The notes below the pieces were generated by a model. That model was not told the DNA's origin and searched no databases. It worked only from the letters and a program-made list of their open reading frames with translations. A stretch of 11,277 bases of DNA from an uncultured bacterium (GTDB lineage: Bacteria; Cyanobacteriota; Cyanobacteriia; Leptolyngbyales; Leptolyngbyaceae). Below are positions 4,517 to 11,277 of the stretch, piece after piece (position 1 is the first letter of the stretch; every line of letters starts with the position of its first letter). The position numbers and the translations under genes are program-made. The stretch is taken from NCBI GenBank assembly GCA_964524315.1, contig CAZGDE010000232.1, forward strand, positions 1 through 11,277, written 5' to 3'.

Positions 4517-4748
4517 AACTTCGTATATGGCTGACCAAATCTTAGTTAAAGATTTAGCTTCACCCGTAAAATGCACCCGCACAGTAGCATGTAATTATTG
4601 CCGGGGGATCCCTTGAGGATCACAAAAGTACATACTACGCAGATCAGTTCAGCCCTGTGCAGGATTTTTTAACGCTGGAACAATTCATCATTAAAGTAAA
4701 GGCTTCCAGCATCACTAAGTTTTATTGCATCTCATAAGACTGAATCCT

Positions 4749-5174
4749 ATGGCATCCGAACAACAAGTCAGACAGTACCTTGCCTATTGGTTTCAGTTGG
4801 GTAAGCAAGTGCTAATTCAGGGTGGGGAAACAGCATTGTTGCCCCGTCCTGTGATCCAGGGCGATCGCTACAGTCAGGAATTTGAGGTCTGCTGGCAAAC
4901 GGTTATTGCCTCCCAATCAGGCGATTGTTACCTGGAAGGTACGACCCAAACGATAGCAGAACTGCTCACACCATCCTGGGAAATTAATCCATGCTGCCGT
5001 TGCTCCATGCCAGTACCACAAAAAGTTGTAGGTCATCCTGGGAATCCAGACTGTACCTGTGCTGATATGCCCGGCTGGCCCAATACTGAAATCCCTTCGC
5101 CCCGTGCTCCAATTGATAGCACTGTATTACTCCTCCGCATTCGCGATCGCCTGCGTCAAGCCGGCGGACAGTAA
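4749..5174 (+). CDS. Cys-rich hypothetical protein, ~141 aa
   Basis: The ORF is clean and long, with an ATG at 4749. The track start at 4725 is a TTG. There are 7 Cys residues, including the clusters NPCCRCSMP and DCTCAD. I do not recognise the family. Confidence 0.5.
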   Translation: MASEQQVRQYLAYWFQLGKQVLIQGGETALLPRPVIQGDRYSQEFEVCWQTVIASQSGDCYLEGTTQTIAELLTPSWEINPCCRCSMPVPQKVVGHPGNPDCTCADMPGWPNTEIPSPRAPIDSTVLLLRIRDRLRQAGGQ

Positions 5175-5239: not shown

Positions 5240-5276
5240 GAAGCGGTAGGATGATGTATTTTCACCCTACCGCTTC
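5240..5276. terminator. Candidate bidirectional intrinsic terminator hairpin between convergent genes
   Basis: The hairpin has a 14-bp stem (gaagcggtaggatg / caccctaccgcttc) with one A-C mismatch and a 9-nt loop (atgtatttt). The flanks are moderately T-rich on both strands (cacttgattgat on +, tggtttatct on -). It lies 66 nt after the 4749..5174 stop. Confidence 0.4.
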
Positions 5277-5292
5277 ACTTGATTGATCATGG

Positions 5293-5338
5293 AGCAGTTC
5301 GCTCCGTCAACTATTCGCGGTAGCCGGAGCGAACTGCT
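5293..5338. other. Perfect 14-bp inverted repeat with an 18-nt loop overlapping the stop codon of the 5311..5592 gene
   Basis: The arms agcagttcgctccg (5293..5306) and cggagcgaactgct (5325..5338) are exact reverse complements. The right arm encodes the last 9 codons of the minus-strand small protein, and the loop contains its TAG stop. Confidence 0.35.
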
Positions 5339-5592
5339 GGATCGGGACTGCGATACGTCGTCTGGGTAGTTTTGGGTTTGCGGAATAGATTGGCCAAACC
5401 AATTAAACCGATTAACCCCAACCAACCTAAATTGTTATTATCATCCCGTGTTTCTTGAAAAGGCGTGGTATCCAAGGTAGGCGAATTGGGCGAGCTTTGC
5501 GCATGAACTGGCAGCGTTGCTGACAGCATGGTCAAACTCAGGGCCAATACCCCAGCCCCCAAGATTTTCTGAGAAGCATGACGTAACTGCAT
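5311..5592 (-). CDS. Small secreted or membrane-anchored protein with a Gly-zipper hydrophobic segment (paralogue 1), 93 aa
   Basis: The N-terminal Sec-type signal peptide is MQLRHASQKILGAGVLALSLTMLSATLPVHAQ. A Ser/Thr/Asp/Asn-rich linker follows, then NLGWLGLIGLIGLANLF and a basic stretch RKPK with a polar tail ending GYRE. A GAGGA motif lies 7 nt upstream of the ATG. It is a paralogue of the 5728..6003 gene. Confidence 0.6.
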   Translation of the reverse strand: MQLRHASQKILGAGVLALSLTMLSATLPVHAQSSPNSPTLDTTPFQETRDDNNNLGWLGLIGLIGLANLFRKPKTTQTTYRSPDPAVRSGYRE

Positions 5593-5727
5593 TATTTTTC
5601 CTCGTTAGATATTAATAATCGCGAATTGGCCCTAAAAAGGAACCTCTGTCAGTCAATGGGTCTATGTTGAAGGTCGTCGTAGTCAGTTACTTCGCTAATC
5701 GCCAACATCACAATCAGGGCGAGATGA

Positions 5728-6003
5728 TTAGTAGCGAGAACTGGGATTCGTCACTTCATCACGATCGCGGTAGTGTACCGCCGGTGCCTCATTCTTCTTC
5801 GCCAAACCAGCCAGGCCAGCGAGACCCAACAAACCTAACCAGCCCCAATCAAAGTCCCGATCGCCAGCATCACGAGTGTCAGTCGTCGTATTAACATCCG
5901 GTGGTGCCGAGGTTTGGGCAGAAACAGACAGTGAGGGCAGCATCGCCACACTGAGCGCGATCGCGGCAGTAGCAAGCACTTGAGGTAAAGAATTAATTTT
6001 CAT
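5728..6003 (-). CDS. Small secreted or membrane-anchored protein with a Gly-zipper hydrophobic segment (paralogue 2), ~92 aa
   Basis: The start is taken at the ATG at 6003: a GGAG motif lies 9 nt upstream, and this start gives the signal peptide MKINSLPQVLATAAIALSVAMLPSLSVSAQ. After a TTTDTRDAGDRD linker come DFDWGWLGLLGLAGLAGLA, KKNE and a polar tail ending SSRY. The ORF-track start at 6063 adds 20 unconserved residues. Confidence 0.6.
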   Translation of the reverse strand: MKINSLPQVLATAAIALSVAMLPSLSVSAQTSAPPDVNTTTDTRDAGDRDFDWGWLGLLGLAGLAGLAKKNEAPAVHYRDRDEVTNPSSRY

Positions 6004-6197
6004 CGGGTTCATCTCCTGCAAGGGAATGTGCATGGTGGCTTTGCCAACAACCAACCATGACAACGTGATGCCCTAACATTAATTTGACCTGACTGACGGT
6101 TTAATCGCCCCTCAGCTAGAAAAGGGAGATACGAAGGACTGTGACTAAAGAATGAGAGGTTTTCTATCGTCACCGTAGCCACTATATCCAGTTCGTC

Positions 6198-7551: not shown

Positions 7552-8748
7552 ATGTCGGAGATGCCCCAGCAACGCTTCCCCGCTTTTTTTGGATCTCTAC
7601 TTACACTGCTTATCCGCTTAGGAGGGCGTGGTTGGTGGATGTCAATGCTTATCTGGTTAGCAGCGATCGCGCCTGCCCATGCCAGTTCGGTCGAATTGCG
7701 GGTAGCCATTGAAGATGGTGTCAGCCAGGTAACTGTAGGTAGTTCAACCCGTGCTGTAGTTCGAGATGGGGCCTATCGTCAGGTCGGTGAAATTGCACCG
7801 ATGAACGCCTTTGTGGCCCAACCCAAACAAGGCAGGATTGCCGTTGACCGTTGGCAGTCCGGCCAACTCTGGATCGAACCGACTGATGGTGGCTATGTGT
7901 TCATTGGCGATCGCTGGTATCGGGGACGAACGCTGCTGGTTCCCAAATCGAAGGGGCTAACGGCTGTTAACTATGTGGATTTAGAGCAATACCTCTATAG
8001 CGTTCTTGGTGGCGAGATGAATGGTAACTGGCCCCAGGAAGCCCTCAAGGCCCAGGCCGTTGCTGCCCGTTCCTACGCCCTCTACCAGAGGCAAAAGGGA
8101 GCCAATGGGATATATGATCTGGGTGATACCCCCGCCTGGCAGGTATACGACGGGATCGAGGATGAATCAGCAGGTACCCAGGCTGCGGTCAACGCCACAA
8201 CAGGGCAGGTATTGACCTATCGGGGACAAATTATTGAAGCCGTATTCCATTCCTCGGCGGGCGGTTGCACAGAAAATGTCGAGGATGTTTGGACACAGGC
8301 GCTCCCCTATCTGCGATCGGTACAAGATTTTGATAACAGTTCACCCGTTGCCCAATGGACGAAAAACTTTTCGCGCAGTGATTTAAGCAAACGCATTACC
8401 GGCGTAGGTAACATTATTTCGTTACAACCTGCAAAACTCAGTCAGTGTGGCCGTATTATTACCATGCAAGTGATTGGTGATGCGGGTAGACGCTCGATTG
8501 ATGGTGATGTCCTCCGGACTGCTCTTGGCCTCAGAAGCACCTTATTTGAGGTCATCCCTCAAGGCAGCGGCGCTAAAGGCAAGTCTCAATTACCCGGTTC
8601 GTTTCAAATTAATGGGCGGGGATTTGGGCATGGCTTGGGTCTAAGTCAATGGGGTGCTTACAACCTGGCACAACGGGGTACAAATTATCAGCAAATTTTG
8701 TTGCACTATTACCAGGGAACGACATTGGCAAAGATTCAGGTTAAATAA
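7552..8748 (+). CDS. SpoIID/LytB-domain protein (cell-wall amidase enhancer-like), 398 aa
   Basis: The translation shows the SpoIID/LytB domain: VNYVDLEQYLYSVLGGEMNGNWPQEALKAQAVAARSYALY, AVFHSSAGGCTEN and GHGLGLSQWGA. The N-terminal hydrophobic signal or anchor is MSMLIWLAAIAPAHASS. An alternative start at ATG 7561 has a GGAG motif 9 nt upstream. Confidence 0.85.
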   Translation: MSEMPQQRFPAFFGSLLTLLIRLGGRGWWMSMLIWLAAIAPAHASSVELRVAIEDGVSQVTVGSSTRAVVRDGAYRQVGEIAPMNAFVAQPKQGRIAVDRWQSGQLWIEPTDGGYVFIGDRWYRGRTLLVPKSKGLTAVNYVDLEQYLYSVLGGEMNGNWPQEALKAQAVAARSYALYQRQKGANGIYDLGDTPAWQVYDGIEDESAGTQAAVNATTGQVLTYRGQIIEAVFHSSAGGCTENVEDVWTQALPYLRSVQDFDNSSPVAQWTKNFSRSDLSKRITGVGNIISLQPAKLSQCGRIITMQVIGDAGRRSIDGDVLRTALGLRSTLFEVIPQGSGAKGKSQLPGSFQINGRGFGHGLGLSQWGAYNLAQRGTNYQQILLHYYQGTTLAKIQVK

Positions 8749-9290: not shown

Positions 9291-10571
9291 TTAACTCCGA
9301 TCAACCGTATCGTCGGTGCGATCGCCCGGTAAGCGGTTTTGCTGCGAGGTCGTCCAACTCTGGACTGCCTGAGCGATATCCATACCAGTAGTCTGTTTTA
9401 GCTGTTCCAGAAAACTGGCAGCTTTGACGGCATTACTCCCTTTGTTGGCATCAACGACTGTGACATTCTGCACCTTAATATCGGGTACCGCATTGGTCAG
9501 GGTCTTCAGCAAGGTTTCCAGCCGTTGCAGTAAGAAGATATCGCGGGCATTAGAACCAGCAGTCTTCCAAGATTCCGCCAAACGCAAGGTACCTTCCGCC
9601 CTGGCTTTGCCATCTTCGATGATGCTGGCAGCATTCCCCTGGGCGCGGGCGATCGACTGTTTACAGTCAGCTTCGGCAGGTGCCACCACATCCGCCTGCA
9701 GTTGTTGCTCAACCTGCTTAATGCGCTCCTGTTGAACAGGGATTTCAGCCTGAATCCGGGCCAGTTCGGAAGCGATTTCGGCCTCGGCCTCAGCCACGAC
9801 GGCACTCCGCATAGTGGTCGCGTCTTTGATACGGCGTTCGGCATCGGCCCGGGCAATACCAGTGTCGCGATCGAGGCGGCTCAGTTCCGTCACTTTCTGA
9901 TTTTCTGCCGTTTGAATGACAGACTCGGCTCTCGCCTGTGCCTCAGCAATCCGAGCATCCCGGAGCAAATCTGCCCGCTGTTTGCGCCCGATTGAATCCA
10001 GATACCGCACATCATCAGAAATGTTCTGAATCTGGAGCGTGTCCAATACTAAACCCAGCTTTTCCAGATCATCCTCGGCTTCATCCAGCAGACTGCGAGC
10101 AAAAGCGATTTTGTCCTCATTGACCTGTTCTGGAGTGAGACTGGCAAGTACCCCCCGCAAGTTACCTTCTAGAGTTTCCTTCGCCATCTGTTCAATTTCC
10201 TGGCGACTCTTACCCAGTAGCCGTTCGATCGCATTATGGATAGCAGGTTCTTCGCCGGCAATTTTGATGTTTGCCACCCCTTCTACCGTCAGCGGAATAC
10301 CACCCTTTGAGTAAGCATTGGACACTCGCAGGTTGATGATCATGTTGCTCAAGTCCATCCGCAGGGTGCGTTCCAGCAGGGGCACCCGAATGCTACTGCC
10401 GCCTTTTACCAGGCGATAGCCGACGCTGCGCCCATTTTCTAACTCGTGGGTACTACCCGCAAAGATCAGAATTTCATTGGGTTGGCAAATGTAATACAGG
10501 TTGCGAATGACAAACACCCCTGCCCCAGTGCCCAGGCCAAAAATGGCTAGTAGTGCAAATATCGCCTCCAT
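9291..10571 (-). CDS. Flotillin-family (SPFH / band-7) protein, 426 aa
   Basis: The N-terminal membrane hairpin is MEAIFALLAIFGLGTGAGVFVI. An SPFH-like core follows, then a long Ala/Glu/Gln/Arg-rich coiled-coil (RIAEAQARAESVIQTAENQK ... AEAEAEIASELARIQAE) typical of flotillin repeats. Confidence 0.85.
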   Translation of the reverse strand: MEAIFALLAIFGLGTGAGVFVIRNLYYICQPNEILIFAGSTHELENGRSVGYRLVKGGSSIRVPLLERTLRMDLSNMIINLRVSNAYSKGGIPLTVEGVANIKIAGEEPAIHNAIERLLGKSRQEIEQMAKETLEGNLRGVLASLTPEQVNEDKIAFARSLLDEAEDDLEKLGLVLDTLQIQNISDDVRYLDSIGRKQRADLLRDARIAEAQARAESVIQTAENQKVTELSRLDRDTGIARADAERRIKDATTMRSAVVAEAEAEIASELARIQAEIPVQQERIKQVEQQLQADVVAPAEADCKQSIARAQGNAASIIEDGKARAEGTLRLAESWKTAGSNARDIFLLQRLETLLKTLTNAVPDIKVQNVTVVDANKGSNAVKAASFLEQLKQTTGMDIAQAVQSWTTSQQNRLPGDRTDDTVDRS

Positions 10572-10573
10572 AC

Positions 10574-11277
10574 TTAACTCTCCTTATGACCATTACGGCG
10601 ATTCAGGGTTGCCCCCACATCAATACCCAGCGTGTCATCTACATGTAGCAAGAACTGGCGCACAATTTCGGGATAGACACTCACCAACCCCGTTAATGAC
10701 TTGCCATCCCCGTTGTCAATCACATTGACCTGATCGAGGTGAACCCGTTTGGGAATCTTGGCGGCTTCTTGCAGCACCATTTCAATTTGTTGCATCAGGA
10801 ACAGTTCCGATGCATCCACGCCCGTCTTCTGCCAAACCTTCGACAACATATCGTTGACCATTGCAGCAGCCTTGGCATTTTCAGCTAATTCAGCAGCAGA
10901 TCCCTTAGCATGGAGGGTTTTCGCCTGACGTTCGGCTTCTGCGGGTAAAACCTCATCGGCTTCCAGTCGTAACCGTTCCAGTTCCGCCCGCATCGTTTGC
11001 ATCTGTTGTTCAGCACGGGCACGGGCCTCCCGTTCCGCCGCTTTGGTACGTTCTTCTTCAGAACGAGCTTCCTGTTCGAGTTCCGCCTTAATTTTGCGGA
11101 GTTCGTTCTGGCGCTGCTGGATAACTGCCATTGCTTGGGATTTGGCCACTTCAGACTGCTGCTGACAGTTGGCCTCGATCCGTTCTGCCTGACTGAGAGC
11201 CTCAGCTTCGGCAATTTCGGCATCCCGGACAATTTGCGCGATCCGTTTACGTCCAATCGATCGCAGATAATCCACGT
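10574..11277 (-). CDS. Second flotillin-family protein (paralogue), 5'-partial because the N-terminus lies beyond the window end
   Basis: DYLRSIGRKRIAQIVRDAEIAEAEA parallels VRYLDSIGRKQRADLLRDARIAEAQA of the downstream flotillin. EA/EAR-rich coiled-coil repeats follow. The TAA stop lies 2 nt before the next flotillin ATG (TAAGTATG), so the two are probably co-transcribed. Confidence 0.8.
   Translation of the reverse strand, partial: VDYLRSIGRKRIAQIVRDAEIAEAEALSQAERIEANCQQQSEVAKSQAMAVIQQRQNELRKIKAELEQEARSEEERTKAAEREARARAEQQMQTMRAELERLRLEADEVLPAEAERQAKTLHAKGSAAELAENAKAAAMVNDMLSKVWQKTGVDASELFLMQQIEMVLQEAAKIPKRVHLDQVNVIDNGDGKSLTGLVSVYPEIVRQFLLHVDDTLGIDVGATLNRRNGHKES

Follow-up and report, generated by a model that had tools for sequence, protein, structure and literature searches.

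WGxxGxxG family proteins encoded by a conserved gene pair of a Leptolyngbyaceae genome: candidate micro-membrane proteins

What kind of proteins do two small adjacent genes of an uncultured cyanobacterium encode, and would these proteins be retained in the membrane or be processed as sorting substrates? This question is raised by a stretch of 11,277 nucleotides from a member of the Leptolyngbyaceae (assembly GCA_964524315.1, contig CAZGDE010000232.1), hereafter called the window, which carries on its minus strand the genes A (5311..5592) and B (5728..6003). An initial annotation, made from the sequence, had described them as two minus-strand open reading frames (ORFs) of ca. 90 amino acids at these positions, which is indeed where they lie (93 and 91 amino acids, respectively), and all peptide strings quoted in it occur in the translations. 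It had been unable to place the proteins in any named family, and this did not hold: judged by their profile scores, A and B are ordinary members of the curated cyanobacterial WGxxGxxG family NF041742, which is named yet uncharacterised, and are in that sense already catalogued. The family is large (4078 clusters, see below) and strongly constrained, and its module has been flagged by the curator as a possible sorting signal. What is new, relative to the searchable literature, would be a conserved tail that the family model leaves out, a core with a glycine at every third residue and a recurrent pair in which a B-type gene precedes an A-type gene. We hold it slightly more probable than its opposite that A and B are Sec-exported type-I micro-membrane proteins that are retained and act as adaptors or regulators, with the hydrophobic helix as a specific recognition element.

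Family membership was judged by the curated NCBIfam cut-offs, i.e., 35 bits for NF041742 (“WGxxGxxG family protein”) and 24 bits for NF038039 (“WGxxGxxG-CTERM domain”). Against the hidden Markov model (HMM) of the former, A scores 53.5 and B 67.8 bits, and against that of the latter 31 and 34.4 bits, so that both proteins exceed both cut-offs. A match to a characterised family, which the initial annotation had named as an argument against its reading, was thereby found in part: there is a family with a name, but it is not a characterised one. The literal motif W-G-x-x-G-x-x-G is present in B (WGWLGLLG), and A has LGWLGLIG, with a Leu for the first Trp; this replacement occurs in 11% of 240 family sequences, all of which keep the inner Trp and the three Gly. 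The names of the homologues in NCBI and UniRef agree with the WGxxGxxG family, and JGI often mislabels them as “MYXO-CTERM”; MYXO-CTERM-type matches to WGxxGxxG are treated by the curator as false positives of TIGR03901 (bioRxiv 10.1101/2023.06.07.544157). In the searchable literature the WGxxGxxG motif is mentioned only in two postings of the myxosortase work of D. Haft (bioRxiv). The later one describes WGxxGxxG-CTERM as “a possible orphan sorting signal” in which the Cys typical of MYXO-CTERM is missing and for which no sorting enzyme was identified (Haft, bioRxiv 10.1101/2023.06.07.544157). Pfam returned nothing significant for A and B (the sole row, DUF7261 at E = 0.1, is below its cut-off), the sequence profile search of the PDB no relative at E ≤ 1, and a tblastn search of a plasmid collection no match. 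An LPXTG cell-wall anchor was rejected, since A reaches 13.3 bits against a cut-off of 15.9, B has no match, and neither protein has an LPXTG motif.

The two proteins have the same layout of signal peptide, linker, hydrophobic segment, dibasic stop and tail, as the initial annotation had recognised, and this layout is real and kept across the family alignments. Its parts, with the translation signals of the two genes, are as follows:

5311..5592, minus strand: gene A, encoding a 93-amino-acid WGxxGxxG family protein of the A-type subfamily (from the ORF list)
5728..6003, minus strand: gene B, encoding a 91-amino-acid WGxxGxxG family protein of the B-type subfamily (from the ORF list)
6013..6017, minus strand: Shine-Dalgarno-like AGGAG, 9 nt before the ATG of B (read from the sequence)
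5600..5603, minus strand: Shine-Dalgarno-like GAGG, 7 nt before the ATG of A (read from the sequence)
5917..6003, minus strand: predicted signal peptide of B, amino acids 1-29, ending in SVSA before Q (hydropathy; cleavage site by the -3/-1 rule)
5500..5592, minus strand: predicted signal peptide of A, amino acids 1-31, ending in PVHA before Q (hydropathy)
5800..5847, minus strand: hydrophobic core of B, WGWLGLLGLAGLAGLA, amino acids 53-68, Gly at period 3
5383..5430, minus strand: hydrophobic core of A, LGWLGLIGLIGLANLF, amino acids 55-70, with Asn68 in place of the fifth Gly of the B-type
5731..5799, minus strand: basic stop KK and 21-amino-acid polar tail of B, NEAPAVHYRDRDEVTNPSSRY, outside both HMMs (matches end at amino acid 70)
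5314..5382, minus strand: basic stop RK and 21-amino-acid polar tail of A, PKTTQTTYRSPDPAVRSGYRE, outside both HMMs (match ends at amino acid 72)
Tail peptide sequence: KKNEAPAVHYRDRDEVTNPSSRY

The mechanically derived ORF of gene B is longer, extending upstream as far as a TTG (6063); translation probably starts at the ATG of position 6003, because the AGGAG at 6013-6017 lies upstream of it and the homologues have N-termini of the form MKxNSLP. Hydropathy reveals two hydrophobic stretches per protein, an N-terminal one resembling a signal peptide and a second one at amino acids 55-70 (A) or 53-68 (B). The N-terminal region ends in VHA before Q in A and in VSA before Q in B, in agreement with the Sec signal peptide ending in AQ that had been proposed. 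In the alignment of 60 B-type homologues (A2) both A29 and Q30 are invariant, and in the A-type alignment (A1) Q32 is invariant and A31 is conserved in at least 90% of the sequences. The predicted mature protein therefore starts with Gln (+1) in 100% of the sequences of both subfamily alignments. Signal peptidase has no requirement for Gln at this position, and its invariance may point to an N-terminal pyroglutamate. The linker between the two hydrophobic stretches is net acidic and rich in Thr, Asn and Asp in both proteins; across 369 sequences it has a median length of 28 amino acids, consists for 25% of Thr, is net acidic and never contains Cys, a residue that A and B lack altogether. In an AlphaFold monomer model of B, made with the 60-sequence alignment, helices occur only at 6-21 (the signal peptide) and 54-70 (the core); the core helix has the highest predicted local distance difference test score (pLDDT, ~80), the remainder is of low pLDDT, the linker and the tail being disordered.

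The core is conserved far above the remainder of the protein. Mean column identity in the subfamily alignments is 49-55%, but a stretch of 14 residues, G-W-L-G-L-(L/I)-G-L-x-G-L-A-(G/N)-L, is near-invariant in 240 homologues from both subfamilies: all 240 have G at +1, +4, +7 and +10, W at +2 and L at +3, +8 and +14. In alignment A2 the segment F51-L67 of B is almost wholly invariant. The initial annotation had interpreted this segment as a glycine zipper with a small-xxx-small, GxxxG-like packing face, an interpretation that had to be abandoned. The Gly period is three, with three GxxG in A and four in B; GxxxG was searched in both proteins and found in neither, the sole small-xxx-small pair in either core is A62/G66 of B, and there was no match of A or B to the Pfam glycine-zipper families at E ≤ 10. 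Placed on an alpha-helix, the core glycines point to 0, 300, 240, 180 and 120 degrees, i.e., they form a spiral with no single packing face.

Beyond the core, the dibasic RK or KK and the polar Tyr/Arg tail that had been noted in the initial annotation are seen in both proteins, with 21 amino acids following the dibasic pair, and are conserved family-wide. In 369 sequences the tail after the core has a median length of 24 amino acids with an interquartile range of only 23-25; Arg, Thr, Pro, Asp, Glu and Tyr are frequent in it. Residues Y78, R79 and R90 of the B tail (alignment A2) and Y80 and R92 of the A tail (alignment A1) are conserved in at least 90% of the sequences, 117 of the 369 sequences end in the dipeptide RY, and a Y[RK..][DE][PR][DNE] motif occurs once in 190 of the 369 tails. 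Some tails carry it in tandem: protein P0255 has four copies, P0194 (the A-type gene at 9923-10342 of locus L006) has two, and the tail of P0326 visibly contains several copies of the type YxxP(D/N/S). In the long tails of these three proteins the repeated unit, present two to four times, can be written as Y-(R/K/I/T)-(D/E)-P-(D/N)-E/A. Such tandem multiplication would be behaviour typical of a short linear binding motif, and with its conserved length and its motif the tail agrees better with a part that stays in the cytoplasm than with a C-terminal sorting signal of the canonical kind.

Are these genes real, and is the pair the product of a recent duplication? With B as the query 742 homologues were recovered and with A 149, mostly of 85-110 amino acids, and those with an organism name are nearly all cyanobacterial. 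A profile search of 1.84 billion cluster representatives (at 50% identity) gave 4078 clusters at E ≤ 1e-3, of which 825 reach E ≤ 1e-10; the 150 top-ranking clusters are all 84-161 amino acids long. The homologues fall into two subfamilies. The B-type signature is GDRDFDW-GWLGLLGLxGLAGLA-[KR][KR]-xEEPxxRYR(D/E)P(D/N)EV...RY (its tail part also written as YRDxDEV), and that of the A-type is PTxDTTPFQETxDDNNN[WL]-GWLGLxGLIGLANLF-RKPK...Y...YRE. They are split by core position +13, which is G in 120 and N in 120 of the 240 sequences and G in 245 and N in 124 of the 369. The two types are homologous over their full length, including the tail (hhalign, 99.9%). The initial annotation had called the pair tandem-duplicated; an adjacent pair of homologues it certainly is, but the implied recency was overstated, because A and B are only 38% identical, yet the orthologues of either one in genera such as Planktothrix and Pantanalinema match it at 66-74% identity. 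Judging from these identities, the two genes represent separate paralogue subfamilies of old origin and did not arise by a recent duplication.

The ratio of non-synonymous to synonymous substitution rates (dN/dS) against orthologues in seven other genomes is 0.10-0.18 for A and 0.18-0.22 for B, with saturated dS, which shows that both are genuine genes kept by purifying selection. It could be argued that genes this small, rich in low-complexity sequence and without a Pfam domain, are chance ORFs or a functionless recent local duplication. With hundreds of homologues that share invariant motifs, these dN/dS values, a ribosome-binding site before each gene, a pair that is kept across genera and an A/B identity of just 38%, such an explanation has a negligible probability and is already refuted by the conservation.

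The initial annotation had also asked whether such tandem pairs recur in Cyanobacteria, which they do. A scan with the A-type alignment against one genome per species yielded 36 A-centred loci. In 13 of these a B-type gene is located directly upstream of A on the same strand, i.e., in Crinalium, a Thermosynechococcaceae metagenome-assembled genome (MAG), two Pantanalinema, two Planktothrix, a Microcoleaceae MAG, Trichocoleus, Leptolyngbya FACHB-36, Allocoleopsis, Oculatella, Cyanobacteria bacterium FACHB-471 and one uncultured MAG, and in two more the adjacent B and A genes are divergent. If only those small A genes are counted for which 1 kb or more of the upstream DNA is available, 15 out of 28 have an adjacent B. 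The other A loci are mostly Chroococcidiopsidales-like or belong to Argonema/Aerosakkonema, where A is solitary within 10 kb. The B-centred loci comprise single genes, B-then-A pairs (L058, L082 and L085), a B-B pair (L083) and a B-B-B array (L084). Tandem arrays are thus frequent, and the heterotypic pair with B before A is of old origin.

Outside the pair, little recurs. None of the neighbours in the window (rph, adk, dcd, an FAD oxidoreductase gene, a Cys-rich ORF, rnz, SpoIID, a 92-amino-acid ORF and flotillin genes) is recurrent at the 36 loci, and de-novo ORF clustering over ca. 80 loci recovered just generic response regulators and kinases and lineage synteny. In one Nostocales-like clade the gene is part of a block Rhomboid - SmpB - [gene] - Wzy_C - HisK - DegT - exosortase (CrtB), the counterpart of which in Nostoc punctiforme is the crtB/hormogonium-polysaccharide locus. 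In this block a single B-type gene lies between smpB and the Wzy_C gene, at the margin of the locus of crtB (cyanoexosortase B), e.g., at 8001-8288 of L039 (Mastigocladopsis repens JH992901.1) and likewise in L040, L044, L047, L059, L072, L076 and L080, and one or two rhomboid genes lie beyond smpB in L039, L040 and L076. As a functional link the block was set aside, since it is found in one clade only, its neighbouring genes are 58-92% identical and it is missing elsewhere; it represents synteny and a lead. An MMR_HSR1/DUF697 GTPase and a Peptidase_M50 near some loci were likewise rejected as partners, as their presence does not generalise.

The module is not confined to the small proteins. 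It ends larger proteins of 147-340 amino acids: those at 9074-10096 of L034 (an Actinomycetota MAG), 9329-10174 of L024, 7889-8572 of L037 and 20-463 of L030 end in an A-like module (...GLIGLANLFR...), and a larger protein at 8551-9057 of L017 ends in a more divergent WGxxGxxG-type module (...GLAGLLGLAGLNKR...). No Pfam domain was found in these five carriers, and their “cargo” gives no functional hint. A further set of small proteins from metagenomes (L051, L052, L054, L057, L061-L063, L067 and L070) has a signal peptide, a linker and (F/H/M)DWGWLGLIGLAGLAGL, followed by tails of just 6-14 amino acids with no YRDP; these probably derive from non-cyanobacterial phyla and resemble the “true CTERM” form.

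How, then, may A and B function? As retained membrane proteins, their precursors would be exported by Sec and processed by signal peptidase I behind the AxA motif, so that Gln becomes residue +1, and the mature products of ca. 60 amino acids would span the membrane once in an N-out/C-in orientation, with the acidic linker outside and, following the positive-inside rule, the Arg/Tyr tail in the cytoplasm; the bitopic type-I topology suggested in the initial annotation is judged plausible. The helix would be an intramembrane recognition element, either for association of A with B or of each with itself, for docking to a membrane complex, or for being recognised by a conserved, unlinked membrane enzyme. 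A specific recognition element is the most likely role of the helix because an ordinary anchor needs hydrophobicity and no invariant sequence. The tail would remain as a short cytoplasmic docking motif of the type YR(D/E)P(D/N)E. Retention is preferred because the module is not C-terminal, the length and the motif of the tail are constrained and the motif is multiplied, and the “cargo” would amount to ca. 25 low-complexity residues. Several points weigh against it: signal-peptide cleavage, topology and membrane retention are deduced from sequence rules; the hydrophobic core, with just 16-17 residues and a very high Gly content, is barely sufficient for a stable helix; the strict tail motif is missing in 177 of the 369 sequences; and we know of no docking partner for the tail. 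Short Gly-rich segments are equally preferred by intramembrane proteases or sortase-like enzymes, and the module, by ending larger proteins and by occurring with tails of 6-14 amino acids, behaves there as a sorting signal does. A and B may, alternatively, be sorting substrates, for which an intramembrane enzyme (exosortase-, rhombosortase- or myxosortase-like) would recognise DFDW/GWLGL, the helix and the basic cluster, cleave, and transfer the Thr/Asp-rich peptide to the envelope (e.g., to a polysaccharide), the tail being released or degraded. This we regard as possible, though rather unlikely. The tripartite arrangement of signature, helix and basic cluster, the NF038039 scores above the cut-off, the portability of the module just described, and the PExPT-CTERM family as a precedent for tiny sorted proteins are all in its favour, as is the adjacency of the gene to the Wzy gene of the crtB/hormogonium-polysaccharide locus in the Nostocales-like clade and to capsule-type and glycosyltransferase genes in Stanieria, and it corresponds to the curator's own view of a possible orphan sorting signal (bioRxiv 10.1101/2023.06.07.544157). 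However, 21-24 conserved residues follow the basic cluster in A, B and most cyanobacterial members, a constraint on tail length and motif would not be expected for a discarded fragment, the low-complexity “cargo” is minute, and the Nostocales adjacency is the lineage synteny discussed above. The co-occurring sortase, exosortase, protease or transporter that the initial annotation had proposed to look for did not emerge either: over 80 loci were covered, and in them no enzyme gene recurs within ~10 kb of the family genes; nor did the family curator obtain a sorting enzyme from partial phylogenetic profiling (Haft, bioRxiv 10.1101/2023.06.07.544157).

A decidedly improbable alternative is regulated intramembrane proteolysis, in which a rhomboid or site-2 protease would cut within the Gly-rich helix and free the YRDPxE tail as a signalling peptide. 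Rhomboid substrates require destabilisation of the helix, and a Gly at every third residue should have that effect; the tail is conserved and disordered, rhomboid genes are located within 1-2.5 kb in L039, L040 and L076, and Peptidase_M50 genes within 3-6 kb in L042 and L084. However, the rhomboid adjacency is limited to one closely related clade and the M50 genes to two loci, and neither type of gene is present in the window or in the A-centred loci. A more specific proposal, which we consider unlikely, is that the small WGxxGxxG proteins form a paired class of micro-membrane proteins, widespread and centred on the Cyanobacteria, and are not cargo: A and B would build a hetero-oligomer through their (G-L-x)5 helices, the A-type Asn facing the B-type Gly, with the tail recruiting a soluble partner, or they would be co-factors or primers of the WGxxGxxG sorting machinery. 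If the co-factor or primer variant is true, study of the pair would identify the WGxxGxxG sorting enzyme. Returning to the retained type-I proteins that we prefer, the tail, the period-3 glycines and the B-then-A pair argue that the small cyanobacterial members are retained membrane proteins and no classical C-terminal sorting substrates.

The transcript that carries the pair can be considered in light of the hairpins, by which the initial annotation had thought the pair to be bracketed. Two strong stem-loops are indeed present on the 3' side of A:

5293..5338, minus strand: 14-bp perfect stem-loop straddling the stop codon of A
5240..5276, minus strand: 15-bp terminator-like stem-loop followed by the U-rich UGGUUUAUCU, between convergent genes; probable end of the B-A transcript

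Folded together, they reach -59.8 kcal/mol (z = -7.9). On the other side, the bracket is lacking: the spacer between rnz and B (197 nt; z = -1.1) folds no stronger than its shuffles, and neither does the spacer between B and A (z = -0.15). We infer a bicistronic B-A transcript that would end after A, because the B-A spacer lacks significant structure and a strong terminator-like hairpin follows A. Most orthologous A genes have a stem-loop on their 3' side, and in many it is terminator-like. In the very stable stem at 5293-5338 the last codons of A (PAVRSGYRE-stop) pair with the adjacent 3' untranslated region, and this hairpin might influence termination, mRNA stability or the way in which the last codons are translated. 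It was dismissed as a family feature or a repeat element, as it is not kept at orthologous loci and neither of its arms is repeated elsewhere in the window.

With respect to its surroundings, the pair had been placed between a Cys-rich hypothetical gene and rnz, and both neighbours were verified. Upstream of the pair lies rnz (NF000801, 385 bits), and convergent with gene A is an ORF at 4725-5174 on the plus strand, which encodes 149 amino acids with seven Cys (in CCRC and CTC clusters) and has no match in Pfam or NCBIfam. In the sister contig L001 it is annotated as a gene of 141 amino acids, and it is absent beside the WGxxGxxG genes of other genomes. Two neighbouring flotillin/Band_7-type (FloT-like) genes are located at 9291-10571 and 10574-11275, both on the minus strand, the second being cut by the edge of the window, and a SpoIID/LytB-domain gene (7552-8748) and an ORF of 92 amino acids that is coiled-coil-like lie between them and rnz. 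The window has a GC content of 51%, and the HIP1 octamer GCGATCGC occurs 15 times in its 11.3 kb (e.g., at 5958-5970), where ~0.2 would be expected by chance, a signature of cyanobacterial genomes.

Comparison with known systems places A and B close to several families. With glycine-zipper and GxxxG motifs they share a Gly-rich single transmembrane helix for which helix-helix association is plausible, but the period is four there and three here, and here the glycines do not share a face. Packing through GxxxG is known from glycophorin A. The PEP-CTERM/exosortase system, including the cyanoexosortase CrtB, combines, as do A and B, a signal peptide with a Gly/Leu helix near the C-terminus and a basic cluster. 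The likeness is nevertheless superficial, as the initial annotation had maintained: neither protein contains P-E-P or matches a PEP-CTERM HMM of NCBIfam at E ≤ 10, the tail is long, and an exosortase is present neither in the window nor at most loci. The domain of the MYXO-CTERM/myxosortase system lies in the C-terminal region and is similar in length and design to the module of A and B, but it has an invariant Cys, which is missing from A and B and from the linkers of ~370 homologues; the WGxxGxxG domain is, moreover, found outside the Myxococcota. With the NF038039 module A and B have in common the signature motif, the hydrophobic helix, the basic cluster and the lack of Cys, but in these proteins the module is not C-terminal, since the HMM matches end at amino acid 72 of 93 and 70 of 91, 21 residues before the end, and what would be the “cargo” upstream of it is merely a low-complexity linker. 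The closest agreement is with NF041742, of which A and B match the size of 85-110 amino acids, the signal peptide, the Thr-rich linker and the WGxxGxxG helix with its basic cluster; its model of 69 positions ends at that cluster and leaves the conserved tail unmodelled.

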